A stretch of 64,000 nt of DNA. Source: Chlorobiota bacterium (lineage in GTDB: Bacteria > Bacteroidota > Ignavibacteria > OLB7). Positions 809 through 30,670 of this stretch are shown one piece after another. Position numbers and translations under genes: made by a program. The notes below the pieces were generated by a model. The model had not been told where the DNA came from, made no database searches, and saw nothing but the letters and a program-made list of their open reading frames with translations. Position 1 is the stretch's first letter. The number at the start of each line of letters is the position of its first letter. The stretch spans positions 3,373,338 through 3,437,337 of the forward strand of contig JADJXR010000001.1 of assembly GCA_016710285.1 (NCBI GenBank), written 5' to 3'.

Positions 809-1516
809 CTATGCTGCGCAGGCTTCCCGCATTTGCTTCATGGTCAGAGTGGGGTTGGGGGTTCCAAAAATTCCTGAGCCGCTGACCACAACGTCAACGC
901 CGGAATCGTACACGGCGCGGATGTTGTCCAGTTTGATCCCGCCGTCGGCTTCCACCAAGCAATCGCTGCGCCCGCAGCTGGCAAGCATCTGGCGCAGCCG
1001 TTCGGCACGGCGGAAAAGCGTTGGGATAAACGCTTGCCCGCCAAACCCCGGCTCCACCGACATCAACAACACAAGATCAACGTAGGGGAGGATGTCCTCC
1101 AGCGTGCTGAGCGATGTCGCCGGATTGAGCGTCACCCCCGGGCGGCAGCCAAGCTGGCGGATGCGGTCAATCGTCCGGTGAAGGTGAAGCGCGGCCTCGA
1201 CGTGAACGGTGATGTACGTTGCGCCGGCGTGCGCAAAATCTTCCAGATAGCGGTCGGGGTCGCTTATCATCAGGTGGCAATCCAGCGGAAGCTCCGTCAC
1301 CTTCCGCAATGCCGCAATCACTGGCGGACCAATGGTGATGTTCGGCACAAAGTGGCCATCCATCACATCAACATGAAGGAAATCGGCACCGGCTTCTTCC
1401 AGCATCTGCACGTCTTCGCCCAATCGAGTGAAGTTGGCAGAAAGAAGGGAGGGGGCAAGGTAAAGTTTACGGGCTATGGACATGGCTGATGTTGATTCTG
1501 TTGGTTCTGGGATCAT
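809..1516 (-). CDS. rpe: ribulose-phosphate 3-epimerase
   Basis: Rpe motifs are present (APSLLSANF..., HVDVMDGHFVPN, SVEPGFGGQAF). The ATG at 1516 overlaps the Lon-like gene stop as ATGA; an alternative ATG lies at 1483. Confidence 0.9.
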   Translation of the reverse strand: MIPEPTESTSAMSIARKLYLAPSLLSANFTRLGEDVQMLEEAGADFLHVDVMDGHFVPNITIGPPVIAALRKVTELPLDCHLMISDPDRYLEDFAHAGATYITVHVEAALHLHRTIDRIRQLGCRPGVTLNPATSLSTLEDILPYVDLVLLMSVEPGFGGQAFIPTLFRRAERLRQMLASCGRSDCLVEADGGIKLDNIRAVYDSGVDVVVSGSGIFGTPNPTLTMKQMREACAA

Positions 1517-4091
1517 TCTTCTTCCTCTGCCGGAGTGTCAATCGCGCCGCTGCCATCGGGAAGTTCGGCAAGGAAGGAGGGCTGAGCCGATTCGTGGCCG
1601 CCGTAGCTCCGAAGGCTATCGGCCAGCTTGGCAAGGCGGCGTTGCACAAGGTGGTTGATGGTTCCGGCGGGATAGTTACCACGCGAGTTCGGTTCCCCTG
1701 CGGCAACGCCGGTAAGAATTTCAATCCCCTGGTCAATGGTGGTGACGGGGTAGATGTGGAACTTCCCGGCGGCAACGGCTTCCACCACTTCGTCGCGCAG
1801 CATCAGTTCGGGGATGTTCTGCACGGGGATCATCGCCCCTTGCGTTCCGGTTAGCCCACGCGCTTTGCAGACTTCGTAGAATCCCTCCACCTTCTCCTTC
1901 ACCCCGCCAATCGGTTGGATTTGTCCCCATTGATTCACCGACCCCGTCACCGCCAGGTCCTGCCGAATCGGCACGCCGCTCAGGGCCGAAAGCAGGGCGT
2001 AGATTTCGTGGAGGATGCGCTGTCGCCATCAACGCCGCCGTAGGATTGCTCGAAGACGATGTGGGCCGTCATCGAAAGGGGGCGTTGCTGCGCGAAGCGA
2101 TGCCGCAAAAAACCGGCGATAATCAGCATCCCTTTGTTGTGCAGGCTTCCGCTCATCCGCGCCTCGCGCTCGATGTTGATAATCCCATGCCCCCCAACGG
2201 CCACGGTTGCGGTGATCCGGCTGGGCTTCCCGAAACTGATCTGCCCAACGGAATAGACCGCAAGCCCGTTGATCTGGCCCACCATTCTTCCTTCGGTGTC
2301 AATCAGGAGCGATCCATCAATCATCCGCTCCATGATTTTTTCTTTCCACATGGATTGCCGCTCCACCATTTGCCGGATTGCTTTCTCAACATGGTAGCGG
2401 CCAACGATTTCGGCGGTGTCGCGCTCGGCCCAGAAACTTGCTTCGCGAAGCAAGTCGGCAATGTCGCTGAATCGAAGGGAGATTTTCCGCATATCCCCGG
2501 CTTTCTCCACCGCGTACTCCACCACTGCGGCAACGCCATCGGGATCGAAATGGAGCAGATGTTCTTCGTCCGAGAGTTTGCGGATGAACCGGGCGTACTC
2601 AATCAGGACCGTGTCGGTGCGGGCAATCTCGTAGTCGAATTCGGCACTGATCTTGAAGATTTTCCGGAAGTCTTCCTCCATCGAAAAAAGTGCTTGGTAC
2701 AGCCTGGGGTCGCCGATCATGATCACTTTCACATTCAGGTCAATCGCCTGCGGTTTCATGGCCACCCCTTGCGTGCTGGATTGCACGAAGCTCTCGAACG
2801 GCTGAATCTCCAGCTTTCGGTGAAGCAGCACCCGTTTCAGTGCTTTCCAAACACCAGGTTCGCTAAGCGCGTCGGCGGCGTTGATGATTAAATATCCACC
2901 ATCGGCGCGGAGGATTGCCCCGGCTTTAATCATCAGGAAATCGCTGACCCAAAACCCCTGCTGGGTTGGCACCCGCTCGATGGTTCCAAACAAGTTGAGA
3001 TAGGTGGGGGTGGTCTCGATGATAACCGGCGCGCCGGTGGTTCCGGCGTTGTCCAGCACCACGTTTACTTGATAGGTGCGGAGCGCGCCGTCGTCGCTTG
3101 CTGGCGGTTGTGCTTCGTCGTCGGTGCCCTGGGCGGCGGCTTCGGGCTGGGGTTGCTTGAACAGATCAAGGTTGTTCAGGATGTCGTTGCCCACCTCTTC
3201 AAGGTAAGCGATGACCGCCTCGAACGGAAACCGCATGGCTAAGTCGTCGAGCGTGGCCTCGATCAACAGCTTTGCCGAGGCGGCCTCGAAGTCGCCCAAC
3301 TCTTGCTGAAATTCTTGCGAGAGCTTCATGCCGTTGCGGGCAAGCTGGTACAGGTCGCGGTGGCGGCGGGTGTAGTTTTCGCCGATTGCGCGCGCTTGCT
3401 CGGCGGTGATTGCGTTCTCCTTCACCAGCTGGTCCAGCGCGGCAATCGGATACGCTTTCCCGTTGATAACCGGAAGAATTTCCGGCTGGACGGCTCCATT
3501 GCCGGCCTTCACCTGGCCCAGGGTGAATCCATCGGGGCGGAGTTCCTCCTCGAATGCCCGCAGCAGTTGTTGTTCGCGCTGCTGGAATTCTTCGATGATC
3601 TTCGTGCGTCCGGTGCGGAACGTCTCTTCTTCAAACATCTTCGGTATCCGCCCTTGCAGGAAGCTGATGGCGTCGTGCATGGCGCGTTGGAACGGCGCGG
3701 CTTTCCCTTTTGGGAACTTCAGCAGCGTGGGTTGGTCGGGGTCGTGGAAGTTGTTGACGTAGGCGTAATCGTGGGGAATCTGGCCGTTTGGGGTGATGCG
3801 TTCCAGAATGCTTTTGATGGTTGTCAGCCGTCCGGTTCCGCTAAGGCCACTCACAAAAATGTTGTAGCCGGGGCTGGCGATTTCTGCCCCCATTGTCAGC
3901 GCGTCCAATGCCCGTTGCTGGCCAATGATCCCGTTCAGCGGGTCAACATGGGCGGTGCTGGGGAAGGGGAATGCGGTGGAATCGGCATACCACCGAAGCG
4001 ATTTCACCGGAAGGGACGGGTGCGTTGGGGCCGGAAGAAGCCGCGCAGATTTGGAAGAAGCGGAATCGGTGGAAGCCGGAGTTTTGTTCAT
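1513..4091 (-). pseudogene. Lon-like ATP-dependent S16 protease (YcbZ/LonC-like), interrupted by a -1 frameshift near position 2007
   Basis: The 703-aa N-terminal ORF ends ...SYGGVDGDSASSTKSTPCFRP*. The Lon_C continuation (V)[31 protein letters not shown]... is in another frame as ORF 1513..1974. Inserting one G after ACG restores ...[26 protein letters not shown].... Confidence 0.8.
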
Positions 4092-4259
4092 GCTGGGCTG
4101 CTTGAATGATGTGGGCCGCCAAGATAGGGAATCCGTGGGATACAGTATCTGAACACTCTCTCAACACTCTCTGATTGGTTCGCGTTGGTGGTTTCCCCTA
4201 CCTTTGCGGAAGTTCGTTGTGCCGAAGGCACATTGGTATGATCTGAGCGAATTATCCAC

Positions 4260-5684
4260 ATGGCAACTACTTCACAAACCACTGTTTCCCTGGAGACCAT
4301 CGTCTCGCTGGCAAAACGCCGCGGGTTCATTTTTCAATCATCGGAAATCTACGGCGGGCTGAACGGCTGCTGGGATTACGGGCCGCTTGGGGTGGAACTC
4401 CTTCGCAATATCAAAGAGTCATGGTGGCGGGCAATGACCTACCGCGACGACATCGAGGGGATTGACGCGGCAATCCTGATGCACCCCCGTGTTTGGGAGG
4501 CCAGCGGCCACGTCCAAAGTTTCAGCGACCCGATGATTGACAACAAAATCTCCAAAAAACGCTACCGCGCCGATCACTTGATCGAGGGGGAGATTGAGAA
4601 GCTGCGGAAGAAAGGGCGCACCGAGCAGGCCGATGTGCTGGAAGCAAAGCTCAACGCGGCCATGGACCCGGGGGATTTCTACAAGATCATCACCGAGCAC
4701 CAAATCCAGGACCCGGAAACCGGCCAGGCGGAGTGGACCGAAGTGCGCCAGTTCAACCTGATGTTCAAAACGCACATCGGCCCGTTGGAGGAAAGCTCGT
4801 CGGCGGTGTACTTGCGCCCGGAAACGGCCCAGGGGATTTTTGTGAATTTCACGAACGTGCTGCAATCTTCCCGCCAGAAAGTTCCCTTCGGGATTGCCCA
4901 GATTGGGAAATCGTTCCGGAATGAGATCAACACCAAAAACTTCCTGTTCCGCACCCGCGAGTTCGAGCAGATGGAGATGCAGTTCTTCGTGAAGCCTGGC
5001 GAGGATGCCAAGTGGTACGACTACTGGCGCGAACAACGCTGGAACTGGTTCCGCGATCTGGGAATGCAGATGGAGCGGCTGCGGATGAAACCGCACGAAA
5101 AACTTGCCCACTACGCCCGCGCTGCCGTTGATATCGAGTATCAGTTCCCGTTTGGATGGGGGGAGTTGGAAGGAATCCACAACCGCAGCGACTTCGACTT
5201 GGGGCGGCATACCGAGTATTCTGGCAAAAAGCTGGAGTATTTCGACCAAGTCGCCAACGAACGCTACACCCCGTTCGTGATTGAAACCGCTGTTGGTGCC
5301 TCACGGTCCACCATGGCCTTCCTTTGCGATGCCTATGCCGAGGAGGAAGTAAACGGCGAAAAACGGAATGTTTTGCGGTTCCATCCAAAGCTGGCTCCGT
5401 ACAAAGTGGCGGTCTTCCCTCTAGTTAATAGGGATGGAATGCAGGAATTCGCCCAGAAACTGTATGGAGATTTGCAGCGGTCGTTCAAGGCGTTCTACGA
5501 CGACTCCGGCGCGGTGGGCCGCCGCTACCGCCGCCAAGATGAAGCCGGAACCCCTTTCTGCGTCACCATTGACGGCCAAACGCTGGAAGACGGAACCGTC
5601 ACCATCCGCCACCGCGACACCATGCAGCAGGAGCGGATCCCGGCGGAAGGGGTTGGCAGCTACGTGGGGCAGCGGATAGCGTAA
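4260..5684 (+). CDS. glyQS: glycine--tRNA ligase (alpha2-type class II)
   Basis: Full-length similarity to dimeric GlyRS (FQSSEIYGGLNGCWDYGPLG, class II motifs FRNEI, anticodon-binding C-terminus). Confidence 0.95.
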   Translation: MATTSQTTVSLETIVSLAKRRGFIFQSSEIYGGLNGCWDYGPLGVELLRNIKESWWRAMTYRDDIEGIDAAILMHPRVWEASGHVQSFSDPMIDNKISKKRYRADHLIEGEIEKLRKKGRTEQADVLEAKLNAAMDPGDFYKIITEHQIQDPETGQAEWTEVRQFNLMFKTHIGPLEESSSAVYLRPETAQGIFVNFTNVLQSSRQKVPFGIAQIGKSFRNEINTKNFLFRTREFEQMEMQFFVKPGEDAKWYDYWREQRWNWFRDLGMQMERLRMKPHEKLAHYARAAVDIEYQFPFGWGELEGIHNRSDFDLGRHTEYSGKKLEYFDQVANERYTPFVIETAVGASRSTMAFLCDAYAEEEVNGEKRNVLRFHPKLAPYKVAVFPLVNRDGMQEFAQKLYGDLQRSFKAFYDDSGAVGRRYRRQDEAGTPFCVTIDGQTLEDGTVTIRHRDTMQQERIPAEGVGSYVGQRIA

Positions 5685-10228: not shown

Positions 10229-10690
10229 CAAAAACGAAGAAGCATAATCGCGATTTTTCCCTTGCGCTCGCCTCGGCAGCTCGCGTATCTTCGTGCAAGG
10301 TATGATAATCCTTCGTCAGCTTGTTCGCATTGCTCAACCCTGATGAATTCCCGTACCGAATCAACGTTCCTTCCCTGCTCGGCAACGTTGAAATTCTTTG
10401 AGGTCTCTTTTTTCTAAAGATCGAGGTAGAAAAAAGGGTAATACCTGAAAACCCTCGTGAGCAGTATCGGTTGTTTACCCATATCAGCCGATCATTCGGC
10501 CCAAGTTCGTCCGCCATCTCGCCGTTCTTTTCTTTTCGCAAGAAACCGTTGCGCATTTGCGCAAACCGTTCCACGCTCTCGTTCCCTTGCTCGCAAAGGG
10601 GGAATGCGGATGGTGATTCTAAAGCAACCAACGGGCACACGCCAGGCTGCTGTTCGTTCGCACGTTTCGTTCACAACAACTGTATAACCC

Positions 10691-11053
10691 ATGCGCACTC
10701 TTCTGGTTTTTACCGCACTGTTGTTCCTGCTGCCACCGCTTGTTGAAGCCTACCATGTTGGCGAAAAACCGAGACCTGCACCCCCCAGCGATGCAGGGAA
10801 GCCGCAGATTCTCCGGGTTTCACAAACGGAGTTGGAGTTTGGATCCGCTGTGGCCGGCCCGGTCGCCTTGCGGGTTAGCGATGTGCGCGGCAACCTTCTA
10901 TCAAACAACGGACGGTACGTTACCGAGGCCGAGCCAATCAACGGCAAAGGGCGGTTCGTGCTAAATCTGGATAACCTGAGGAGTGGGGTGTATTTCATCG
11001 TCCTGAGCAACAGCGCAGGGGTTTCGTCGAGAGGGGTGCTTGAGGTGAAATAG
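10691..11053 (+). CDS. small secreted protein with a T9SS C-terminal sorting domain
   Basis: Signal peptide and C-terminal ...NLRSGVYFIVLSNSAGVSSRGVLEVK. Confidence 0.65.
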   Translation: MRTLLVFTALLFLLPPLVEAYHVGEKPRPAPPSDAGKPQILRVSQTELEFGSAVAGPVALRVSDVRGNLLSNNGRYVTEAEPINGKGRFVLNLDNLRSGVYFIVLSNSAGVSSRGVLEVK

Positions 11054-11310
11054 CGAAAAATGGGAAAAGAGCCAGAAAGAAACAATTAGGAAGGCCGAAC
11101 CGCAGGATGAGACAACCACAAACCATAGAACAACAGGAGGCTTGATGAGACCACCGTAAGCACGACGCTTCATTGCAAACCAGCAATAGGATTGCTGGAA
11201 GTACTACCACATACTTAGCAACTCCGAATCGAACAGCAGTGGCCTCTGATCGGGGCCACCGAAACAGAAGCACGACGCAAAGGTATCATAAACCTAAAAC
11301 AAACAAACAG

Positions 11311-12159
11311 ATGAAAAATCTTTTGACAGCGGCACTCTGTGCCATCAGCCTGATAACCGCCCTAACAACAACCGCCAACGCGCAATGTCCAGATCCAAAT
11401 CTTGGTGTTGAACCGCAATGCCAGCCGGCTCCGGCATGGGTTGCCAAGCGGGCAATTCTGAAACTCTCGGAACACTGTTTTGTGGAGATTGATTACTGCG
11501 AGCAGTGGGTGTGTCGTGGAATCGCAGGATTATCACGGAGCCGGATTTCCATAAGCACATTAAGATTCTTCGACGATGTCGGTGGAACAGGAACTGGAGT
11601 TGGTTGCTACCTTGATGCCATTCTTCCAGAGGGAACATTTAGTGATGAGCGGCAAATGAATGAGATGCTTGGAACAATCCTGCAAAAAATGGTAGAGCAA
11701 GGGGTAGTACTTAGCGATGGCCCACCCAAACCATGCTCTGAAAATCCAACGGATATGCTTTTCGAAATTGTGACTTCACCATGCTATAATGTTGGATATT
11801 GGTTCGGTACCGTTGATAATCACTTGGTTGGAGGTGGAAGTGGTCAGGGAGAAGGTGCACTATACTATCATTTCTGTAGTGGCACTTATAGCTGTAGGCG
11901 AAATTGGCGATTCTGCACACAGCCAGATGGTTCAATCAAAAAAGATTTGGTTAGTGTGAATCCTTTACCAAATCCCCTTCCGTGGGAAGATCCGCTTTGC
12001 CCTGAATCTCAACCTCCTGCTTTCCCTGCTAATGGGATTGTTGCAGGAACAGGGATTGTTGCAGGGCAATCATATAACCTATCGATGACAGGATTTATTC
12101 CGTGGACTGAGGAATCGCAATGCTGGTCGAATTGCTTGTGGACCCCAATTACTCCATAA
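11311..12159 (+). CDS. Cys-rich secreted hypothetical protein
   Basis: MKNLLTAALCAISLITALTTTANAQC signal peptide and many Cys. GC (about 50%) is lower than the flanks. The ORF track start at 11173 is upstream of the likely ATG at 11311. Confidence 0.6.
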   Translation: MKNLLTAALCAISLITALTTTANAQCPDPNLGVEPQCQPAPAWVAKRAILKLSEHCFVEIDYCEQWVCRGIAGLSRSRISISTLRFFDDVGGTGTGVGCYLDAILPEGTFSDERQMNEMLGTILQKMVEQGVVLSDGPPKPCSENPTDMLFEIVTSPCYNVGYWFGTVDNHLVGGGSGQGEGALYYHFCSGTYSCRRNWRFCTQPDGSIKKDLVSVNPLPNPLPWEDPLCPESQPPAFPANGIVAGTGIVAGQSYNLSMTGFIPWTEESQCWSNCLWTPITP

Positions 12160-12174
12160 GAATGAAAAACAGAA

Positions 12175-12203
12175 TAAGGCGGATAATACGATTATCCGCC
12201 TTA
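12175..12203. promoter_or_regulatory. perfect 29-nt palindrome TAAGGCGGATAAT-ACG-ATTATCCGCCTTA between the Cys-rich gene and the AT-rich delta-60 gene
   Basis: 13-bp perfect inverted repeat read directly. No T-run on the plus strand; T-rich only on the minus side. Confidence 0.4.
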
Positions 12204-12242
12204 CTCTAAAAAAATATCACAGCAAATTCAAGGAGTAAAGAC

Positions 12243-14759
12243 ATGAGTACGAAACTCTTAATGCTATTATTGATAGCATCAGTAAGCACAGCAATAGCAC
12301 AACATCTTACACCAATTCCATCATCTAATATTATTGCATTTAATGATGCTCCATTAACCGCAATTCCAATAGATGGATCATTGCTAGTAGGAGGACGATT
12401 TTTAAAATGTGCACCATATAACACTGGAATTGCCACTGTTGATCCGGTATCTGGGAAGATGTTAAATGATATCAGGTTTGATAATGGAGGGAGTCTTGTC
12501 GTATCCGATAGCGGAGGTGGGTATTATCTATTAGTAGGGGCTACCCCACCAGTGAAGTACGGTACTTCAATCCTGAAGAGGATACAATCCGATGGAAAGG
12601 TCCTGTATAGCGTCCCCCTGTTTGTTAATGGAATTGATCGTTTTTCTGGAACGATTGAATGTATGGCCGCAAAAGGAGATACTGTCTATTTAGGTGGTAG
12701 GTTCTCAACAATCAATGGCATTCCAAGAAATTCCATTGCAGCAATTGAAGCGAGTTCCGGTACAATACTGGACTTTAACCCAACTGTAGATAGCAATGTA
12801 CAAAGCATGGTGATATATGGAAATGATATTGTTATTGGCGGATTGTTTGATACCGTGTTGGGTCAGCCGAGAACTGCTCTGGCAAGAATTAATCGCTATC
12901 AAGGAGTGTTGCATGATTGGCCAATAATGCCAACGGCATTAATGCGAACAAAGTTTAATGATCTAATTCATGGTTATAATCGTTTAGTCATTAGCAAAGG
13001 TATACTATATACAATCCGAGGGGCTATTGATCTATCTACAGGAATATCAACCTCATGGAAGCCAGTGCCAGAAAATATTCCGTTAGCACCATATCCTATT
13101 CCACAGATTGTAGATGTTGATGTAAGCGCAGGTCGTATAATCGTTGTTGGTGAATTTACTGGAATCAATGGAAGAAAGCGCAATGGTATTGCTGTTTTCG
13201 ATGAAAAAACAGGTGAATTAACAGAGACGGATCCCAATAAAAACTGGTTAGACCATTATTCATTCCTATCGGCAAATTATTCTAGTGTGCAATGTGTTGG
13301 CTCAATTGCCTATATTGGGGGGATGGATAATTTTATTGGAAGAAAATCTATAGATGGACTAGCCGCGTGTGACATCCTAACTGGAGAAATACAAGAATGG
13401 GAAGTCGCATGCCTTCGACAAAAACCAGGTGCGCAGTACCCTAGTAAAGTAATATATGCTGATCAGAAGCGTGTTTTTGTCCTCGGTTCCCTTGGTTCGA
13501 TTGGTCACCAAATCGTTTCGCGTAATGGCTTTGTAGAATTGTCGAATTCAGGTGATAGAATTCTAGAATGGAATCCTAACTTCAGGAAATATGTGCGACA
13601 ACATTATAGCGATACGGTTGTGCAAATTTCATCAATTCTGATAATCGGTAATATTATTTATATAGGGGGTAATTTCGATTCAGTTAATGGTGTCGCAAGA
13701 AAAAATCTGTGCGCATTTGAACGCACAACCCGCAGCTTACTCCCATGGAACCCTGTAGTGCAAGGACAAATAATAAATGCTATGGCCTATGATAACAGTA
13801 CATTGTATATCGCTGGAAAATTCGATTCTATAAATGGAACAGAGCAACGTTTTGTAGGAGCTATTGATGCTGTAACAGGGGCAATAAAGCGGATAAATAT
13901 AAAAGTAGATACTATAGTTAATTTAATATCCATTCATGATGAACGGTTGTATATCGCCGGAGAATTTAAAGTGGTTAATGATAAAGAACGAAATGGTTTC
14001 GCGGTAATAGATATTCAAAATGGTACTCTTCTGCAAGAAGGGCCAATGCTACCAGCATTAGCTTCAGTTACTGCAATGCTAATATCAGATTCTATTGTGT
14101 ATTTATCTGGTACTCGATTGGGGGCTGAAGTGACACCAATAACAAACCCCATTGGTGGAAGAATGGCATTAGCAGGGTATAACCGTATCACAGGTGCAGT
14201 GCGATGGCAGCCAAATTATCCTATCCCAACGAACGTCAAGGCATCATCTCTAGTGCTGCATCATGGTCTATTATATGCTGGCGCGTTGATGCGCAATAGT
14301 GATAATAGCGGTAAATCATATATAACTACTACAGGGATATTCCAATATGATCCAGTAACAGGAGCAGAGATAGGAAGAACACTAAGCTCTAATACTCCAA
14401 TTATATTATCAATAGTTAATGATACGATTTTTGCAGCTGGACATTTTGATGGAGAAAATGGATGGTCAGGAATGGAGTTTTTTGCTAGATATGACCCTCG
14501 TCAAAATCTTGAAACTAATATTGTAGAAAATTATAAGAACCATTCTCTACACATATGGCCAAACCCAGCAAATAGCTTCATTGAGGTAAATAATGCTGGT
14601 ATGAAGTCAGCCACATTGAGAATCATAAATACTCATGGAGATGTTCTTGAGGAATACGACCTTGCAAAAACGAAATTGGTAGATGTTGGACATCTACCAA
14701 TAGGACAATATATAGCTCAAGTTGGTGTGTACAGCACGAAGTTCACAATATGTAGATAA
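12243..14759 (+). CDS. delta-60-repeat (DUF5122-like beta-propeller) secreted protein with a T9SS C-terminal domain; AT-rich
   Basis: Repeated GGxFxxVNGxxRNxIAAxDxxTGxLxxWNP modules. C-terminal ...HIWPNPANSFIEVNN...IAQVGVYSTKFTICR resembles a T9SS sorting domain. GC is about 37% against about 60% in the flanks. Confidence 0.8.
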   Translation: MSTKLLMLLLIASVSTAIAQHLTPIPSSNIIAFNDAPLTAIPIDGSLLVGGRFLKCAPYNTGIATVDPVSGKMLNDIRFDNGGSLVVSDSGGGYYLLVGATPPVKYGTSILKRIQSDGKVLYSVPLFVNGIDRFSGTIECMAAKGDTVYLGGRFSTINGIPRNSIAAIEASSGTILDFNPTVDSNVQSMVIYGNDIVIGGLFDTVLGQPRTALARINRYQGVLHDWPIMPTALMRTKFNDLIHGYNRLVISKGILYTIRGAIDLSTGISTSWKPVPENIPLAPYPIPQIVDVDVSAGRIIVVGEFTGINGRKRNGIAVFDEKTGELTETDPNKNWLDHYSFLSANYSSVQCVGSIAYIGGMDNFIGRKSIDGLAACDILTGEIQEWEVACLRQKPGAQYPSKVIYADQKRVFVLGSLGSIGHQIVSRNGFVELSNSGDRILEWNPNFRKYVRQHYSDTVVQISSILIIGNIIYIGGNFDSVNGVARKNLCAFERTTRSLLPWNPVVQGQIINAMAYDNSTLYIAGKFDSINGTEQRFVGAIDAVTGAIKRINIKVDTIVNLISIHDERLYIAGEFKVVNDKERNGFAVIDIQNGTLLQEGPMLPALASVTAMLISDSIVYLSGTRLGAEVTPITNPIGGRMALAGYNRITGAVRWQPNYPIPTNVKASSLVLHHGLLYAGALMRNSDNSGKSYITTTGIFQYDPVTGAEIGRTLSSNTPIILSIVNDTIFAAGHFDGENGWSGMEFFARYDPRQNLETNIVENYKNHSLHIWPNPANSFIEVNNAGMKSATLRIINTHGDVLEEYDLAKTKLVDVGHLPIGQYIAQVGVYSTKFTICR

Positions 14760-14776
14760 GGGAATAACACAACAAC

Positions 14777-14808
14777 CATCCGGCAGGTAAGCATTTACCT
14801 GCCGGATG
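14777..14808. terminator. perfect 14-bp hairpin CATCCGGCAGGTAA-GCAT-TTACCTGCCGGATG between the two delta-60 paralogs
   Basis: Read directly. No U-tract, so intrinsic-terminator function is uncertain. Confidence 0.35.
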
Positions 14809-14840
14809 CTCTAACCCATTCACGAAAAACCACAACTACA

Positions 14841-17420
14841 ATGAACGCTACAACTTCCATGTCTCGCCCACTTTTGCTCCTTCTGCTCCTCGCGTTCTTT
14901 TCCCCCGCAATGGCGCAGCAATGGGAAGTCCAGCCACTGCTCCCAGCTCCCGATAATGGAGTCTTGGATGTCGCGAAAATTCATGATCGCCTGATTTTTG
15001 CAGGGAAATTCACCGAGCTTGCCCGATGGAACGGAGGAACCGCACTGTTCGATCTCCACACCGCACAACCCAATCCTCGCTTCTTCTTCCCACGAAATGT
15101 CGAAGCTGCCATCCCGTACAACGGTGGTTGGTTGGTCTATATCCAAGATAGCGCGCTCCTCGGTAGAAATTATGGAACACTCCAGTGGCTTGGTGCAGAT
15201 GGGAACGTAAAACAGAAAATACCCCTGAAATTTAAAGACTCAGGACATGGAGCCAGTGGGATCAACACAATGGCTGCCGATGGAGATACTCTTTATGTTG
15301 CTGGTGGATTTTTTTCTATGAATGACCTAGAACGTGAATATGCCGCAGCACTCCGGATATCTACCGGAGAAATCCTGCAGTGGAAACCACGGGTCAATAA
15401 TTCTATACACTCCATAGTGGTGTCGAATACCGCAGTCTTTATGAGCGGGCTTTTCGACACAGTCTCTGGCAGCTATCAGAAGCGGATAGCACGGGTCTCG
15501 AAAGGCCAGGGTGAGTTGCAGCCGTGGCCGAAACCGATACCAGATCGGTTGACAAATCACTTTTCATTTTATATCAACAAAAAAATACTCTTATGGAAAG
15601 ACCAATTATTCACTGTCAATGGAAGCATGAACATAGAGACGGCAGAGGAAGGGATATGGAAACCATCTCCACTATTATTGGAGAAGCCAGGCCATCCGTT
15701 TTTTATTGCTGACATGACGATAGTGGGTGGGGTGATTTATACGGTTGGTTTTTTTTCATCAATGAACGATGAGCCGCGTAACGGCATGGCAGCATTTTCC
15801 GCAGAGAGCGGCAAGGTGTTGCCCTGGAACCCCAACAAGGGGTGGCAGCCAACAGCGGACAGAGTTGTCCCAACATTATATTTTATCCAGGTTGTGGATA
15901 CGATTGCGTATTGCGCAGGCAGTATCAATAATATCGGGGGCATCCCGGTTCGGGGGATTGGGGCAGTTGCAACCACCACGGGCCAATTGCTCCCCTGGAA
16001 TCCAAGCGTCTCCAACTATACAAGGATTAATAGAAATAGCATCATAGACCTTGTATCACCTGGTTTTCTTGGTGCATCGGAGGACGGAGTGTTAATGGCG
16101 ATCAGCGGAATCGGTACAATCGGCCAACCGCTGACGGCACGATCCGGAATTGCTGAGGTTGACCTCCGCACAGGAGCACTCTCGCCGTGGGACCCGGGCT
16201 TCCGCAGCCGGATGGATCCGGATAGTTTCTATCTGACCTATACGCACATCCATGCGTTGGCACTTCAAGGCTCAACCCTCTATGTTGGGGGTGTCTTCGA
16301 TTCCGTTGGTGGCGTTCCCCGCTCGCGGCTCTGCGCCTTCGATGCCACCACCCACGAACTCCTCCCCTGGAACCCATCGGTCGTCAATGGTGAGTATCCC
16401 GACAGCGTGATCCAGGGATATTGTTGCCACCCCCAAGCGATCTACATCATGGGAACCTTCGACAGCATCGGCGGGGTGGCGCAGAGGTATATCGCCGCAG
16501 TGGACCCGCAGAGCGGAGCGCTGCTGCCGTTTCAAGCAAACCCGAACCGCCCGGTAGCGGCAATGGCCTACAGCGATGGCCGGCTGTATGTTGGCGGGCT
16601 TTTCAGCACCATTGGTGGGAAGCCTCGGAACGGTTTTGCGGTGCTGGATGGGGTCAGTGGCGAGGCATTGGAGGAGGGACCGATGTTCCCGCCGCGTGCC
16701 ACGGTGCAATCGCTGGCGGTGGGCGACACGCTGGTCTATGTATCGGGGATTCGGTTAGGGAAGGAGGTGACGCCGATGATCCGTCCGATTATTGGAGATG
16801 GGAATGGTTTTGGGGGATACGACCGGACAAGCGGGGAGCTACGGTGGTTGCCGAAGTATCCAGTGCCAACGAACACCGGAGCCGCCCGTTTGGAGCTATC
16901 GCCGCGTGGGTTGATGGTCTCGGGGTTGTTTAGTCGGAAGCCATATCAATCCTTGCCTGGGCAGTGGGATTCCTCGAACAACGGGATGATGCGATTGGAC
17001 GCAAGAAGCGGGGAGGTAAAGGGTGAGTGGCCATTGATTGGGGGATCGAATTTTATTGAATGGTCAGATACGTTGCTGATCTGGGAAGAGTCTCCAGACG
17101 AGCAGCAGGGGATACGGATACCGTATTTAGCATTGCTAACGAACGAGCAGTCGAGCGGGGTTGTTGTTGGGCGGGTTGCAATGGAGGGTTCGGGGGAGTT
17201 GCGTGCCTACCCGAACCCATCGAGTGGTCGTGTTCGAGTGGAGTGTGAAGGAGGATGTGAAGGGAAGGAGTTGGAAGTGGTGAACCAGTACGGAGAGCGG
17301 GTGATGCAGCAGGGATTTGGCGAAGGCGGCGAGTGTGTGTTGGACCTTGGCGGCCTAAGCAATGGAGTCTATCTGGTTCGCATCGGAACCCGCAGCGCGA
17401 CGATTGTGGTGCAGAGGTAG
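14841..17420 (+). CDS. delta-60-repeat beta-propeller secreted protein with a T9SS C-terminal domain; GC-rich paralog
   Basis: Same repeat architecture as 12243..14759 (…LLPWNPSV…GGxFxSxGG). C-terminal ...LSNGVYLVRIGTRSATIVVQR. Confidence 0.8.
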   Translation: MNATTSMSRPLLLLLLLAFFSPAMAQQWEVQPLLPAPDNGVLDVAKIHDRLIFAGKFTELARWNGGTALFDLHTAQPNPRFFFPRNVEAAIPYNGGWLVYIQDSALLGRNYGTLQWLGADGNVKQKIPLKFKDSGHGASGINTMAADGDTLYVAGGFFSMNDLEREYAAALRISTGEILQWKPRVNNSIHSIVVSNTAVFMSGLFDTVSGSYQKRIARVSKGQGELQPWPKPIPDRLTNHFSFYINKKILLWKDQLFTVNGSMNIETAEEGIWKPSPLLLEKPGHPFFIADMTIVGGVIYTVGFFSSMNDEPRNGMAAFSAESGKVLPWNPNKGWQPTADRVVPTLYFIQVVDTIAYCAGSINNIGGIPVRGIGAVATTTGQLLPWNPSVSNYTRINRNSIIDLVSPGFLGASEDGVLMAISGIGTIGQPLTARSGIAEVDLRTGALSPWDPGFRSRMDPDSFYLTYTHIHALALQGSTLYVGGVFDSVGGVPRSRLCAFDATTHELLPWNPSVVNGEYPDSVIQGYCCHPQAIYIMGTFDSIGGVAQRYIAAVDPQSGALLPFQANPNRPVAAMAYSDGRLYVGGLFSTIGGKPRNGFAVLDGVSGEALEEGPMFPPRATVQSLAVGDTLVYVSGIRLGKEVTPMIRPIIGDGNGFGGYDRTSGELRWLPKYPVPTNTGAARLELSPRGLMVSGLFSRKPYQSLPGQWDSSNNGMMRLDARSGEVKGEWPLIGGSNFIEWSDTLLIWEESPDEQQGIRIPYLALLTNEQSSGVVVGRVAMEGSGELRAYPNPSSGRVRVECEGGCEGKELEVVNQYGERVMQQGFGEGGECVLDLGGLSNGVYLVRIGTRSATIVVQR

Positions 17421-17443
17421 CGAGGTGGTTGGCTGATCCTTCC

Positions 17444-17488
17444 TAAAAAAACAACAGCGTCCCACAACACTTTTGCTTGTGTTGTGGG
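17444..17488 (-). terminator. Rho-independent terminator of the ABC exporter operon (CCCACAACAC-N8-GTGTTGTGGG plus T7 on the minus strand)
   Basis: 10-bp perfect stem. A7 on the plus strand at 17444-17450 reads as T7 on the minus strand directly after the hairpin. Confidence 0.6.
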
Positions 17489-17523
17489 ACGCTTGGTTAT
17501 CGCGCACTTTTCCGGAGGTTTTT

Positions 17524-19299
17524 CTACGAGGCTCCTTCTTCCTCGGCCAGCTCACCATACCACAATCCTTGCATCTCATCGCTGCTTGCCAGCAGTTCAT
17601 CCAACGTCCCCTGCGATTCTATCTTCCCCTCCTTCAACAGGATGATGTGGTCAGCACGTTGCAGTGCGGCGCGGCGGTGCGAGGCCACAAGGCAGGTTGC
17701 TTCCCGTTGCTGGAAAATCTGCTCCCACAAGGTGCGTTCGGTCTCCACATCCAGCGCGCTGGAAAGGTCGTCGAAGACGTACAGTTCCGGTTGCAGCGCA
17801 AACATCCGCGCTGCGGCTGTCCGCTGCATCTGGCCGCCGGAGAGCTTCACGCCGCGTGGCCCGATGGTGCTTTGCAGGCCATGCTCCAGCAGCCGGATAT
17901 CATGCTCCATCACCGCAAGGTGCAACGCTTCGGCCACTTGGTCGGCGGGCATTGGTTGGCCCAGGGTGATATTGTCCAGCAGGGTATCGCTGAACAGCCG
18001 TGGGGTCTGCGGCGTGTAGGCCGTTCGCGGCGGCGACATGAAGGTGGCGGGGTCCATCACCAACTTCCCGTTCCAGTAGATTTCCCCCGTGTCGCGAGGG
18101 AGCAATCCCAGCAGGACTTTCAGCAAGGTGGTTTTCCCCGCGCCAATCCGCCCCGTGATAACCGTGAACGATCCCCGCCGCACCCGTAGCGAAACATCTG
18201 CAATCCCACGCTCGGTGCCCGGGTGGTGATAGCCCAGCCCAACCCCTTCCAGCGTGTAGAGTTTGTGCCGCGTGCCACGGGTGATCCGCGGGACCTCCGG
18301 CAGCGTATCGTGCAGATACACCGGCGCGTGCTCCATCAGTTTTTGCTGCGGCGCGTTTTGCAGAAGGTCGTTCATCCGCTCCACCGAAACCCCAGCGCGG
18401 CGATACTCGGAGATCATGTTCCCCACAAACCTCATGCTTCCGCTGATGCGCCCCATGTAGATCACGAACAGCGCAAAATCGCCCACGGTGAAGGACCCGG
18501 TTCGCATCGCTTCGCTGGCCAGCAGCAGCACAATGCCAATCCCGATGTTCGCCATATTTTCGTTCACGCTGTTGATTAACTCACGCCCCAACGTATCCTT
18601 CAGCGCCGCGCCGCGCCGCTGCTCGTTCAGCTTGCTGAAATGGCTCATCATCCGCTCCTCCGCCGCCGAAACCTTCACGGTCCCGACGGCATTGAACGTC
18701 TCGCCAATAAACGAAGTCACCCGCCCGGTTGCTTCGCGGTGTGCGCGGCGGTACTTCCTCATGCGGCCCCCCATGCGGTAGCTGAAGTAGCTGATAACCG
18801 CCAGCGGAGCCAACGCCACCAGCGTCATTTCCGGGGCGATGTTCGCCATGATGATAACGCTGATGACCAGCGAGACAAGAAACCCGCTGGCATCCGTCCC
18901 CGATTCCACCAGGTGCATCACGTCCTCAACGTCGTCGCGGAAACGGTTGACGGCCTCGCTGGGTGAGTCCTTCAGCCGGCGTGACCCCGGCCCCTGGACC
19001 AGCCACTCCAGCATATTCCGGCGCATCAACGCCTCGATGGTATAAAGGAAGGTTGACCAAGCGTGGATTCCAACCCGCATCACCCCAAGCCGCGCTCCGG
19101 TTGTCACCACCAGCAAGGCAAGCAGCGTCCACAATCCAAACTCGGCGGAAGCCTTCCCGCTTAGCGTGTCGAAAATCGCTTTGGTGATAAGCCCCAAGAA
19201 GATTGGGGCACTGTGAAATAGCCCCCAGCAAAGGCAGTTCAGCGCGAACAGCCAGGGCCGGTAGCGGATAAACCCAATGATGTATGTTCCGGTTGTCAT
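17524..19299 (-). CDS. ABC transporter ATP-binding/permease protein (type I exporter, heterodimer partner)
   Basis: Six-TM N-terminus, Walker [12 protein letters not shown], signature LSGGQMQR, Walker [13 protein letters not shown]. Its start ATG overlaps the upstream gene stop (ATGA). Confidence 0.9.
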
Positions 19300-21038
19300 G
19301 CTAACTCCTGTTCTAATCCGGTTTGAAGCAGTTGGTAGTATCGTGATGTCGTGTCCATCTCCAGCAGCTCGCGCTTGCCATGCTCGCGCACGTGTCCATC
19401 TTCAAGAATCATGATCTCATCGGCGCGGGCCACGGTCGAGAGGCGGTGGGCGATGATGATTGCCGTGCGGTTCTGCGTCAGCCGCGCCATTGCCCCTTCC
19501 AGAAGCTGCTCGGTTGCGCGGTCCATCTTTGATGATGGCTCGTCAAGAATCACCAATCCGGGGTCGCGAAGGAACAGCCGCGCAAAGCTGAGCAACTGCG
19601 CTTCCCCCGCCGAAAACCCGCCGCCACCGGTTGCCAGCACCGTATCCAGCCCATCGCTGAAACGGCCAAACCAGTTACGCAGCCCAAGCAGGTCCGCCAC
19701 CTCCCAGATTCTGCTGTCGGGGATGGAGTCGTCGAACCACGTAAGGTTTTGGCGAAGCGTGGCATGGAACAACTGCACATCCTGCGTCACCATTCCGATG
19801 CCGCTGCGAAGGTCGCGCTGGCGAACGTCGCGAAGGTCGTTCCCGTCAATCAGCACCGCGCCCGAGGTTGGGTCGTACAGCCGGAAGAGCAATCGGGTCA
19901 GCGTGGATTTCCCGCTTCCGGTTCGCCCCAGCAGCCCCACCACCGTCCCCGGCTTCAGCGTGAAGTTGATCCCTTTCAGGACCGGGCGTTGGCCGTAGGC
20001 AAAGGTGAGGTTATGGAAGCGGACCTCCATCGCTCCGTTGTGGGGAAGTGGCAAATGGCCATCCTTCATGCTGGCGCGTTCCCTCATCATCTCCTCCACG
20101 CGGCCCACCGCTGCGCCGGCCTTCTGCAGGTCCTGCATCTGGTGGGTGATCTGCTCGATTGGCGTGCGGAGCAGATCGGTGTATTGGAAGATCAGATAGA
20201 CCGTGCCGATCATAATGGTTCCCCCCTGGAACAGCCAGATTCCAAGCCCCAGCGCAAGCACGTCGCCAATGGCGAACAGGCCCATCACCGCCACCCACAT
20301 CACCGAGCGTTTCAGCCAGGCGTTTTTTCCGGTTCGGGCAACGCCCCCCATCACTTGGTGGAAGCGGCGCATGGTGTAGGATCCGCCACCGTTTGCGCGG
20401 ATGTCGTCAATGCCGGCAAGGCGTTCTTCAAGGAATCCGTACAGATCCGCGCTGGCTTGGCGTTCCTGGGCCGAGGCCGCCACCGCGTAATCGCGAAGGC
20501 TGTTCAGCACCAGCGCGGCGCAAATGGTGAAGGCGGTCAGAGCCGCGCCAACAATCGGGTCCTCGCGGAAGAGCATCACCAGCGCGCCCACCAGCAGCAG
20601 CGCGCTTCCCAGAACCTTTACCACGAATTGGGAGAAGAAGTTGGAAAGGGCGGTGATGTCGCCATCAATCCGCTCGATCATTTCGCCCGGGGTGCGTTCG
20701 TTGTGGTATCCCATGTCAAGCCGCAGGGCGTGCTCGGCCATGTCTTGGCGCAGCATGTTGGTGGCGCGCCAGCCCACATCGGCCCCCACGTAGGTGGCCA
20801 GCATGGAAAGCCCTTGCGTGCCAATCGCGGCGGCAAGGAATAGGAGGGCGGTGATAACCAGTTCGGTCCCATCCCCTCCGGTTTGAACGGTATTGATAAA
20901 GTGCCGCAGGATTTGCGGATTCAGCAGCTGAAGTCCGATTCCGGCAAGTAGCAGCAGGAACAGCGCGGCGGCTTTTTTCCATTGCGGCCGCAAGTACTTC
21001 AGGAAAATGTCAGCATATCGCCGTAGTGAAATCTTCAT
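19296..21038 (-). CDS. ABC transporter ATP-binding/permease protein (type I exporter, heterodimer partner)
   Basis: Walker [11 protein letters not shown], signature FSAGEAQLL, Walker [10 protein letters not shown]. The likely start is MKISLRRY at 21038; the ORF track begins further upstream. Confidence 0.9.
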
Positions 21039-21858
21039 GGAACGTCTCTCTTTCTCCAGATGTTGGTGTGATGAAAAACAGCGGAGTCGCGTGCGAAGCA
21101 ATGGCACAGCCCGTGCCGTAGTGTCACGCGATGGTCAACCTGGGCAACGTGTGATGCCGGTTGCGATGGTACTCTGGTTCCGTCAGTCGGTTAAAAAAAG
21201 AGCGGCGTATGTTGGGCGGCGAATGCTCAAGCAGAAGCAGGTATGCCAGAAGGCAACGTCCGCAGCGAAGGGCTGGTGTTCTGCGGCAGGTGTAGCGTGG
21301 GAAGAAGCGGGGTGGTGCTGCGGATTGCAGCGAATACAACGCTTCTGTGGCCTGCGTAGAACAGCCCCCAGCGCGTTGTAGCCAAATGGGAAAACGGGTC
21401 TTCCGATGAACTTACGCCCTGAGCGCCATAACCGAATTGCGTGGTCGCGATGCGAATGCGGTGGTAATGATGGTAAATAACATGGCAACAGCCTCCTTAT
21501 GGTTTGAACGTATGACTCGCCCCGGCTCATGGCGCACCTTGCACCCGCCCCGGCAGCGTGATGTTGCCCCAAACACAAAAATCAGGCCAAAGTTTCCGGG
21601 GGAGGTTTTTACTGATTGTTCGGCAAGCTATAAGCCTGTGCAGCTGGTTGTACATTTGCGGCCTCTTTGTACATTGGGGTGGTTCTTCATCGAACCATTG
21701 TCAGAGTCGGCATCTCAGGGTGCCCGCAAGAACATCACACATCACGCTGACCAAGCCCGACACCTATCGAACGTAGCGCACAGGCAATCACGCAAAAGAC
21801 TGGGATATGTTCGTGGGGAGTCTGAATGTATAGGGTACGGTAGATAAATTCAAATCAA

Positions 21859-23733
21859 ATGATGAACAACACAACACTAACCACTGGGAAGAAATACATC
21901 AAGGATATTTTTAGTGCTGAACAGTTTTTTAATATTCCAGAATATCAACGACCTTATGTCTGGGGGGATGAACAAATTAGTGCATTCCTTGAAGATGTAA
22001 GCAAGGCAATGGAAACTGACAGCAATAAAGAGTATTTCCTTGGCTGCATGATTTGGAACACTCGACAAGAAAGAGCGAGTAGAAATATTGAGTATGTATA
22101 TCAAGATATTTTAGACGGGCAGCAACGATTCATTACTTTATTTTTATTACATGGAGTTATTAGGGACATTTCGATCGAAGTTAAGCTTCAAGAGAATGTT
22201 CAAAAACGGCTTATTCAAGAGGCAGATGATTATAATAATATTCCTGCACGAAATAGAATTGAATTTGAAATACGAGACGATAAAGACTTTTTAGATAATT
22301 ATGTTATTAATTTAGGAGGCACTCTCAAGGTTAACGAAATTGAAGACGTTATCAATAGTCCAAAATCTGGTGCTTCAATAAAAAATATGGCATCAGGGAT
22401 TTTAATAATGAAAAAATGGTGGATTTATAAATTTAGTGAAAATCAAGGAAGTGAGGAAAAATATTTGGCCGATTTCTATAAATATCTTTCAACTAAAGTA
22501 CTTGCACTTTACTTAGCTACACCAAACAATCTAGATGATGCTTATAATTTATTTACTGTGTTAAACAGCAGAGGGCTCCAACTGCAGGTAAGTGATATTT
22601 TAAGAGCACAAAATCTGAGAGTAATCGAGAATGATGAATTGAGAAAGCTATACGCTTCAAAATGGTCTGATTTCGAAAATTCAATTGCGGCTCCTTACAA
22701 AGGATTCGATGATTTTCTTTGGTCACTGGTGTTTATTAAGATGAAATATCGTAGCGATGACAACAAAAGTTTGACTAAAGCATTTGAGTTTATGTTCAAA
22801 CGCAACATGCTCACAAAGGGGACGGACACTCTTGACTATGTCGGTAAGTATTTGAAGCACTATGAAGCCATCACTAACGGTAGTATAACGAACAGAGAAA
22901 GTCTAAACCTTTTTAGTAATCTAAATTTTATTCTTTCAAGTGTTTATGGTAGTCAATATATCACTCCTCTCATGCATTATCGTGAATGCTTTGGTGATAC
23001 AAGAATTGTCGAATTCTTAATCAAAATTGACAATCTGTTTTCGATTGGCTGGTTGTTGGGTCGCAGGCAGTCGTCAACAAGAACTTTTATTATCCTTCGT
23101 AAAATTGAATCATATTCTGATTTGGTGAAAAAGAAAGAATTAACGATAGACGAAGCGGTCGAAGATTTGCTCAATGATCCATGCTTACAATATGATTTTT
23201 ATGATGATGAAATTTCCTCAGATAAACCAATTGATATTGATGATTTTGCTATTCTACTTAACACCGAAAAATGGGGGAGCTTTTCCGGTACAAGAATCAA
23301 CAAGACAAGATACTTACTGTTAAAAATGGATTTGATTATGGGTAATCCATCAACTATTCTGCAATACAACAAAGATTCATCTTCTATTGAGCATTTGATG
23401 CCACAGAAAATTGAGGGGACACAATGGACTGTTCATCCAGCAAAACATAAAGAGTGGGTTCATAGATTGGGCAACCTTGTACTTATTGATAAAAACAAAA
23501 ATTCATCATTAAGTAATAAGCTGTTCAATGAGAAAAAAACAAAATATCATGGAGCAATTGAAACAAGAGCCAATACGAATTTCATTTTTATTGCTAATCT
23601 GAATTGGGACATTGATGCAATTAAAGCAAACCAAGAACGAACAATAGACCTGTTGATGCAATACTATAAAGGCAATAGTCTGAAATCCTTTCTGCAAATC
23701 AAAAAAAATATAAACTCTACTGTGTTATTATAA
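21859..23733 (+). CDS. GmrSD-family type IV (modification-dependent) restriction endonuclease, DUF262 plus DUF1524
   Basis: N-terminal DUF262/ParB-like motifs (FNIPEYQRPYVWGDEQ, ILDGQQRFITLFLL). C-terminal DUF1524/His-Me finger-like (IEHLMPQK...W...HRLGNLVLIDKNKN). GC is about 33%. Confidence 0.85.
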   Translation: MMNNTTLTTGKKYIKDIFSAEQFFNIPEYQRPYVWGDEQISAFLEDVSKAMETDSNKEYFLGCMIWNTRQERASRNIEYVYQDILDGQQRFITLFLLHGVIRDISIEVKLQENVQKRLIQEADDYNNIPARNRIEFEIRDDKDFLDNYVINLGGTLKVNEIEDVINSPKSGASIKNMASGILIMKKWWIYKFSENQGSEEKYLADFYKYLSTKVLALYLATPNNLDDAYNLFTVLNSRGLQLQVSDILRAQNLRVIENDELRKLYASKWSDFENSIAAPYKGFDDFLWSLVFIKMKYRSDDNKSLTKAFEFMFKRNMLTKGTDTLDYVGKYLKHYEAITNGSITNRESLNLFSNLNFILSSVYGSQYITPLMHYRECFGDTRIVEFLIKIDNLFSIGWLLGRRQSSTRTFIILRKIESYSDLVKKKELTIDEAVEDLLNDPCLQYDFYDDEISSDKPIDIDDFAILLNTEKWGSFSGTRINKTRYLLLKMDLIMGNPSTILQYNKDSSSIEHLMPQKIEGTQWTVHPAKHKEWVHRLGNLVLIDKNKNSSLSNKLFNEKKTKYHGAIETRANTNFIFIANLNWDIDAIKANQERTIDLLMQYYKGNSLKSFLQIKKNINSTVLL

Positions 23734-23809
23734 TTACTACCTCACCTTACGCAAGACCAAGCGGTATCTGGGAAATTGGGCATCCATGGCGTTCCATCAA
23801 GAATGCTCG

Positions 23810-24346
23810 TTACTCATGCTGAACCCTGTTGCAGTAAGGGCGAAACCGCTCCCTCATCCGAAACCGCTTCCCGATTTCCTCGCCAACGCTCATTAAGCAA
23901 CGGGTTTCTTCTTCGGTGAACTCATGCTCGGCTGGTTTGGCTATTCCAAGCGTGCCAAGCAGTTCTCCGTCCAGCATGATCGGAACGGTGATGGAGCCTT
24001 CCACCCCGGTCTCCCGCGCCGATGGTTTTGCAACGCCCGAGGCATCGGTCTGCAGGTTGCAGACCTGCACCGGAGCGCGCCGCTCGGCAGCAAGCCCGGC
24101 CATCCCTTTTCCGATGGGGATGGCTGACACTTTCTGCAGCAACATCGGGGGAATCCCAATCTCCGCCTCCAATCGCAAAAGGTTCGCCAGCTGGTCAAGG
24201 CGATGGATGGAGCCAACCACGCCCCCATATTCCTGAAGCACAAGCTCCAGCACGTTGCGGAGTTGGCGATCGGCGGGAAGGTCCGCTGTGAAGGCTGCGT
24301 GAACCGATTCCAGAAGCTCGGCGCAGCGTAGTTGTTTGGTGTCCAT
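23810..24346 (-). CDS. GAF domain-containing protein
   Basis: GAF-like core (VGSIHRLD...ITVPIMLDGELLGTLGIAKP). ATG at 24346 is assumed; the ORF track uses a GTG at 24439, 3 nt after the upstream gene stop. Confidence 0.65.
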   Translation of the reverse strand: MDTKQLRCAELLESVHAAFTADLPADRQLRNVLELVLQEYGGVVGSIHRLDQLANLLRLEAEIGIPPMLLQKVSAIPIGKGMAGLAAERRAPVQVCNLQTDASGVAKPSARETGVEGSITVPIMLDGELLGTLGIAKPAEHEFTEEETRCLMSVGEEIGKRFRMRERFRPYCNRVQHE

Positions 24347-24442
24347 GTCGGTAACGGTTGATTGGTTGATCGTTGCTGATTTCTGGCAAACTCTGCCAGT
24401 GAGGTTGAGCAATGGCTCAGCGTCTCCGCTCCCGGCCACGCA

Positions 24443-26089: not shown

Positions 26090-26214
26090 GCGGAAAATCA
26101 GCGGGAAAATGTGCGTTGGCTTAAAAATCCAGTAGCAAGCAATCGGTTCCGGGGCGTAAATTCATCCCCGTTGTAGGATTGAAAGAACTGATCGAGAGGA
26201 CGTAGCTTCTACCC

Positions 26215-28440: not shown

Positions 28441-28475
28441 GCGGCCAAAACGCTGCGCAACAATTCCGGCCAACT

Positions 28476-29852: not shown

Positions 29853-29902
29853 AAGCGATCATTCTTTCAGCAAGTAGAACCGTACCACAATCGCAATCCC
29901 CA

Positions 29903-30667
29903 GTGTACTCCATCCGGTTATTTCTCTTCATACTTATTGCCTTCGCAATGGCTGGATGCGGGAAGCCCTCCGGCCCACCGCAGCTTCTTGATGCGGTGCT
30001 GTGCCGCGCCGTTGGCGCAGATGGAACCCCAGGCAATCCCACCAAAGAATTTTCATCAACCGACTCCGCCATTCGGTGCGTGCTGGTTTTTCAGCAAAGC
30101 GAAAGTGCTGCAAAAATTCAGGGGAAATGGAGTGTGGCCCGCGTCCCAGGAATACAAAGCGGAAAGGTGATTGGCGAAGTAACGGTATCGGCTGCGCCCA
30201 ACAGCAAATATGTTGATTTATCCCTGCGACCAACGTCGCCACTGCCGGCGGGGAATTATCAGCTGGAAATTTTCATTGACCCTGATAAGAAAAAAACTCC
30301 GCAACCCAACCAAACCCTGACGTTCAAAGTGATTTCCAAAGGGGCGCAAATTTCCAACGCGTTCCTTTCGACAGATCCGCAGGGGAAGGAGCGGAGTGAT
30401 AGTTTTTCGCTCAATACTTCAGCAATTTACGCCCACCTTCGGCTGGCTGACGTTCCCCCAAAAACAACATTAACCGCAAGCTGGGTCCAGGATGGCAATG
30501 GCGAAATTGACCGCGTGCCAATCGTTCTTCGGCGCGGCGAGGAATCGGTGGTGTTTGCCCTAACATTGGAAAATGGATTGACCGCCGGAAATTATCACGT
30601 AGTATTTTTCTTCAATAATCAAACAACCCCGGCCCTTACTGTTCCGTTCCGTTCGGTGGGGGAGTAA
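29903..30667 (+). CDS. hypothetical lipoprotein
   Basis: The GTG start gives MYSIRLFLFILIAFAMAGCGKP (a lipobox). The first in-frame ATG would remove the signal peptide. Confidence 0.55.
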   Translation: MYSIRLFLFILIAFAMAGCGKPSGPPQLLDAVLCRAVGADGTPGNPTKEFSSTDSAIRCVLVFQQSESAAKIQGKWSVARVPGIQSGKVIGEVTVSAAPNSKYVDLSLRPTSPLPAGNYQLEIFIDPDKKKTPQPNQTLTFKVISKGAQISNAFLSTDPQGKERSDSFSLNTSAIYAHLRLADVPPKTTLTASWVQDGNGEIDRVPIVLRRGEESVVFALTLENGLTAGNYHVVFFFNNQTTPALTVPFRSVGE

Positions 30668-30670
30668 TAG

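Follow-up and report, generated by a model that had tools for sequence, protein, structure and literature searches.

In this study, we observed that a Lon-like S16 protease gene on the minus strand at 1513..4091 of the window (the whole 64-kb stretch of DNA analysed here) is interrupted by a one-base deletion, and that this deletion is private to a single assembly, which is Nanopore-based. In reality, the gene would be one intact 859-aa LonC-type protease gene, overlapping at its stop codon with the beginning of the ribulose-phosphate 3-epimerase gene. The split would then be a one-base consensus error in which GG collapsed to G at plus-strand position 2008, and which survived in a metagenome-assembled genome (MAG) built from ~15x Nanopore coverage and polished a single time with ~17x Illumina coverage. 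We put the probability that the split is such an error, left over in the consensus of a Nanopore MAG of low coverage, at about 0.85. A sequence-only reading of the same DNA had left the choice between a pseudogene and a sequencing or assembly error; the second alternative is favoured here, because the deletion is private, the gene is a single intact one in the other assemblies and in all 120 homologues listed, and other private homopolymer discrepancies are present in the same window.

As sequenced, the upstream open reading frame (1980..4091, minus strand) starts with an ATG at 4091 and encodes 703 aa. Its product ends in ...GGVDGDSASSTKSTPCFRP* and consists of the native residues 1-695 followed by eight out-of-frame residues (KSTPCFRP), with the stop located eight codons past ...GDSASST. 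An open -1 frame begins at 2028, ends with a stop at 1513 and encodes the remainder of the Lon_C protease domain. The downstream open reading frame as annotated (1513..1974, minus strand) has a GTG start and encodes 153 aa, corresponding to the native residues 707-859. Both fragments have been deposited as separate public proteins and coding sequences on a 4,352,953-bp contig, the upstream one as MBK8912125.1 (703 aa) and the downstream one as MBK8912124.1 (IPM61_12450; 153 aa). These entries were identified by protein cluster; exact look-ups gave no record for the 703-aa product or for the 859-aa product of 14841..17417.

When one base is inserted, a continuous protein of 859 aa is obtained. 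Thus, the earlier proposal that a single restored base yields a continuous protease was correct, apart from the length, which had been given as 860 aa. It had also been proposed that the missing base is a G after ACG. One base is indeed lost and the translation does not depend on which of the two is restored, but on the gene strand it is a C that is missing, from the Thr695 codon ACC. Seen from the plus strand, GG is reduced to G at 2008, by which TTTCGGTGG becomes TTTCGTGG. The missing-base site itself (2007..2009) reads C-G-T on the plus strand of the window and C-GG-T in all other assemblies, corresponding to AC-GAA versus ACC GAA on the gene strand. At the gap, the MAG GCA_019695125.1 reads TCC TCC ACC GAA ATC and the window TCCTCCAC-GAAATC. 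Within the protease domain, the break follows the catalytic Ser691 (codon 2019..2021, minus strand) by five residues and precedes the catalytic Lys734 (codon 1891..1893, minus strand) by 39. The Ser-Lys dyad is thereby divided between the two open reading frames, with the Ser upstream and the Lys downstream of the break, as the sequence-only reading had described.

The domain content of the two pieces is that of one protein cut in two. In Pfam, the upstream piece matches LonC_helical, AAA_32 and LonB_AAA-LID, and the match of the downstream piece alone is confined to the end of Lon_C (profile positions 128-200, E=1.5e-5). The restored protein gives a single Lon_C match over residues 674-790 (E=1.2e-10) that spans the junction 695/696, in agreement with the adjacency of the two fragments on the Lon_C profile that had been expected. 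LonC_helical (PF20437) covers residues 108-140 (E=7e-12). Among solved structures, the best match of the restored protein is LonC of Meiothermus taiwanensis (MtaLonC; 4fwd) with E=5e-80 over query residues 339-796. The alignment is free of gaps over 648-750 and places S691/K734 on S582/K625, so that Ser691 in the motif GDSASS aligns with Ser582 and Lys734 in VKEKVEG with Lys625 of MtaLonC.

Two insertions specific for LonC proteases have been defined (Liao et al., 2012; PMC3391209), and both are found in the restored protein. The first, CKARGLTG (residues 742-749; 1846..1869, minus strand), corresponds to the consensus CX3GLX(G/E), and the second, VVEAV (residues 769-773; 1774..1788, minus strand), to the consensus phi-X2-A-phi (PMC3391209). 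The AAA-like module is degenerate. According to the MtaLonC alignment, the Walker A-like motif GLSGTGRLT (3822..3848, minus strand) carries an Arg in place of the usual Lys, and the Walker B-like motif GGYLIINAAD (2871..2900, minus strand), which aligns with GGYLILDALS of MtaLonC, is devoid of the catalytic Glu. No transmembrane segment was predicted in the restored protein (maximum Kyte-Doolittle mean over 19 residues, 1.32). With a Ser-Lys dyad in Lon_C, both insertions, a degenerate AAA-like module and a helical domain, the gene has the features of an ordinary LonC-type Lon-like protease as judged from its sequence, and this assignment to the LonC subfamily refines the earlier S16 label.

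MtaLonC, also named 'TTC1975 peptidase', is the closest solved structure (PDB 4fw9, 4fwd, 4fwh, 7euy, 8k8v and others). Both proteins share the Ser-Lys dyad, the two LonC insertions, a Walker B-like motif lacking the Glu, the Pfam domain LonC_helical and the absence of membrane segments. However, the N-terminal half of the restored protein matches MtaLonC weakly, and with 859 aa compared to 732 aa it is ~127 aa longer. The motifs of the AAA-like module also differ: the Walker A-like motif GLSGTGRLT contains an Arg, whereas GPPSLGKHE of MtaLonC contains a Lys, and in the Walker B-like motif the Asp is exchanged for an Asn (LIINA here, LILDA in MtaLonC). For MtaLonC, the role of a chaperone-protease that lacks ATPase activity has been described (PMC13069640; PMC3391209). 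By analogy, and in view of its degenerate motifs, the LonC-type protein of the window is probably ATP-independent, with a non-hydrolysing AAA-like module. Homology to MtaLonC would make it a soluble, ring-forming protease with a Ser691-Lys734 dyad, the substrates of which might be unfolded proteins and peptides, with no unfolding driven by ATP. Archaeal LonB, represented by the Lon protease of Thermococcus onnurineus (PDB 3k1j; TIGR00764), has AAA_32, LonB_AAA-LID and Lon_C in common with the restored protein, which matches 3k1j with E=2.9e-28. In contrast to archaeal LonB, the restored protein has no transmembrane insertion and its Walker motifs are degenerate. Its score against the LonB equivalog TIGR00764 is 129 bits, far below the cut-off of 516.6, and does not support an archaeal-type LonB.

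Evidence for an intact gene comes from the comparison with other assemblies. The restored protein is 100% identical over all 859 residues to MBX7217102.1 from a Candidatus Kapabacteria MAG of the same species, which rules out a chance resemblance and supports the earlier description of the gene as that of a Lon-like S16 protease, broken by the deletion of one base. We compared the locus with 15 assemblies. Eleven of these encode the identical protein (two NCBI MAGs and nine Logan assemblies; L001-L011) and form, together with the original OLB7 MAG (GCA_001567195.1; L027), a strain group of 12 near-identical assemblies. Two others represent a CHB2-like strain with ~96.5% DNA identity (L016, L017), and the last one (L018) is a relative with a protein identity of 89%. 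The extra base at 2008 is present in all 15, and the deletion is therefore private to the assembly of the window. Among the matches listed, Lon_C is part of a single polypeptide in 120/120 homologues. These are 772-885 aa in length and contain all four Pfam domains, with the exception of one protein of 659 aa from a 2.7-kb contig, which lacks only the LonC_helical match. A natural two-gene arrangement, which would have counted against a split gene, was found in none of the relatives examined. A search for either allele in genome and metagenome contigs, and for the deletion allele alone in genome contigs, returned no match; since even the intact allele was missed, this result carries no weight.

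The MAG GCA_019695125.1 (L001), which encodes MBX7217102.1, matches the window from 10547 to 1 with only three differences in 10.5 kb, all of them inside the Lon gene: synonymous substitutions at 2211 and 2205 and the one gap. At 2205..2211 (minus strand), the window reads ACC GCA ACC and the 12 near-identical assemblies ACT GCA ACG. On sequence grounds, both positions are to be taken as real synonymous polymorphism and not as errors, because they are synonymous and the state of the window is that of the distant relatives (L016-L018). For the same reasons, 2008, 2205 and 2211, which lie within 205 bp, do not form one cluster of errors.

A consensus from 15x R9-era Nanopore reads with one 17x short-read polish usually retains about one residual indel per 10-40 kb. 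The MAG that contains the window is Kalu_18-Q3-R12-55_MAXAC.169 (JADJXR000000000; Singleton et al., 2021; PMC8012365, Supplementary Data 3). In that study, it is assigned to Bacteroidota; Kapabacteria; OLB7; OLB7 sp001567195 in the GTDB taxonomy, with a coverage of 17.36 for Illumina and 14.94 for Nanopore and a polymorphic rate of 0.0011 (PMC8012365). Nanopore reads were assembled with CANU and the assembly was polished with Racon, two rounds of medaka v0.6.5 and one Illumina round of Racon (PMC8012365).

To place the deletion in the context of the assembly, the whole window was compared with every fetched locus for indels. Against the close comparators, the Lon deletion is the sole indel in 1-10.5 kb, and no indels were found in 27.6-64 kb. 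Between 14.8 and 26 kb, the window is contradicted at two sites 14 bp apart by the OLB7 MAG (L019) and by GCA_021404615.1, a CHB2-type MAG (L020). At 16415 the window has GGG where both have GG, and at 16429 it has C5 where both have C6. The two sites lie in a plus-strand gene for a T9SS-tail/DUF5122 protein (14841..17420) and form a compensating pair, which jointly turns VIQDIVATPQAIY, present in two independent assemblies, into VIQGYCCHPQAIY. Judged by this comparison, they probably represent two further errors of the consensus; a genuine frameshift with compensation is also conceivable at this position. Private homopolymer-length changes such as these are a classic Nanopore signature, and three private one-base indels per 64 kb fits the expected density of residual errors.

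The same behaviour is seen in the OLB7 MAG, in which the Lon gene is annotated as pieces of 343 aa and 326 aa. This assembly is intact at 2008, and it has private indels at the positions equivalent to 2909 (CC to CCC) and 1880 (TT to T) of the window. Six further run-length indels were detected in 20.8 kb of the OLB7 MAG; four of these are located outside the divergent tract, and at these four the window is supported by the other MAGs. Since the three Lon break points in the two assemblies are each private and each located at a short run, they point to technique and not to biology. Run-length indels also split the molybdopterin oxidoreductase and ZnuA genes of the OLB7 MAG (L013, L019, L027). 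Other candidate indels in the window were discarded. The overlapping same-strand pairs of open reading frames at 17524/19296, 26215/28296 and 35492/36178 were considered as frameshifts and turned out to be separate genes in other assemblies. A BLAST gap at 27645 against three loci (L012, L014, L015) was treated as an artefact, because it is located at the alignment edge in a divergent tract and the gene there encodes 741 aa on both sides of the comparison.

In general, the split resembles residual indels of CANU/medaka assemblies that mimic split genes: a private one-base change of the length of a short run, in one assembly from error-prone long reads at a modest coverage of 15x, with others nearby. 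We infer that the source reads would show GG at 2008. Several observations speak against a consensus error. Unlike in typical residual Nanopore indels, which are commonest in longer runs, the run at 2008 is just two bases long, and the error is deduced here from the comparison of assemblies and not from reads. Apart from the three sites, the assembly is very clean, as seen in 27.6-64 kb. Furthermore, a distinct haplotype is present 200 bp away (2205, 2211), and the strain is thus not simply identical to the others.

The nearby haplotype and the shortness of the run lend modest support to a genuine and very recent frameshift in one wastewater-plant population of OLB7 sp001567195, that of Kalundborg, by which LonC would have been truncated five residues behind its catalytic Ser, lost its catalytic Lys and become a nascent pseudogene, while the other sampled populations remained intact. 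The deletion is present in the deposited sequence and is annotated by NCBI as two coding sequences. The population has its own haplotype nearby, which at 2205 and 2211 agrees with distant relatives and differs from the 12 near-identical assemblies. The loss of LonC, an accessory protease distinct from the housekeeping LonA, may be tolerated. Nevertheless, we consider a genuine mutation improbable. The deletion allele occurs in no other assembly examined, and a density of residual one-base indels close to the one observed, three in 64 kb, is expected from the technology and coverage of the assembly. In addition, there is no sign of further decay, as the protein sequences of the two fragments otherwise match that of the intact gene at 100% identity, although this is not decisive if the mutation is very recent.

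A functional break, namely a programmed -1 ribosomal frameshift, transcriptional slippage or a naturally split two-piece protease, has in its favour that the downstream piece is read in the -1 frame and that a near-native protein would result from a shift placed precisely at ACG|AAA. Such recoding or a two-piece enzyme is nevertheless very unlikely, because the 52-nt overlap of the frames (1980..2031) contains neither an X XXY YYZ heptamer nor a run of at least four identical bases, because the frameshift is conserved in no relative among the assemblies and listed homologues described above, and because the compact protease domain is interrupted between the Ser and the Lys of its dyad.

Strain variation was also observed around the Lon gene and elsewhere in the window. 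In the intergenic region between the Lon and glyS genes (4141..4175), the window has 11 extra bases compared to the CHB2-like strain (L016, L017), located in a short direct repeat GAGAGTGTT...GAGAGTGTT. All nine Logan contigs with the Lon gene (9/9) end at 4974..4985, inside the glycyl-tRNA synthetase gene and near the polymorphic positions 4847 and 4850, which is probably due to the breakage of unitigs at sites of strain variation. Two contigs of short-read MAGs stop at 10541-10547, at the border of a region extending over ~10541..27641. This region harbors a GmrSD-type gene (21859..23733), the exact product of which was found only in OLB7/CHB2-type assemblies and two Logan assemblies. The gene may be part of a strain-variable island, or may lie beside a repeat that breaks short-read assemblies. 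Between 27774 and 31170, the window differs from GCA_019695125.1 and GCA_039810445.1 by 137 substitutions (~4%) and matches OLB7, and in the 33 kb after 31170 only two positions differ from these two assemblies. The stretch 27774..31170, which comprises the 3' end of the molybdopterin oxidoreductase gene, a sigma-54 response regulator gene and neighbours, looks like a strain-level recombination tract.

At the downstream end, the Lon gene and the ribulose-phosphate 3-epimerase gene overlap in the sequence ATGA (1513..1516), in which the TGA of the former and the ATG of the latter are combined. This overlap suggests co-transcription of the two genes, which are possibly translationally coupled. 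A premature stop in the Lon gene, if real, could alter rpe expression. The deletion, if real, would represent the loss of an accessory protease in a single strain and would be of minor significance; the finding is ordinary whether it is read as a consensus error or as a genuine mutation. With a consensus error as the preferred reading, a single LonC-type protease should take the place of the two GenBank entries MBK8912125.1 ('AAA family ATPase') and MBK8912124.1 ('hypothetical protein'). In a broader sense, a gene that is split in a Nanopore MAG of low coverage should be compared with other assemblies before it is called a pseudogene.
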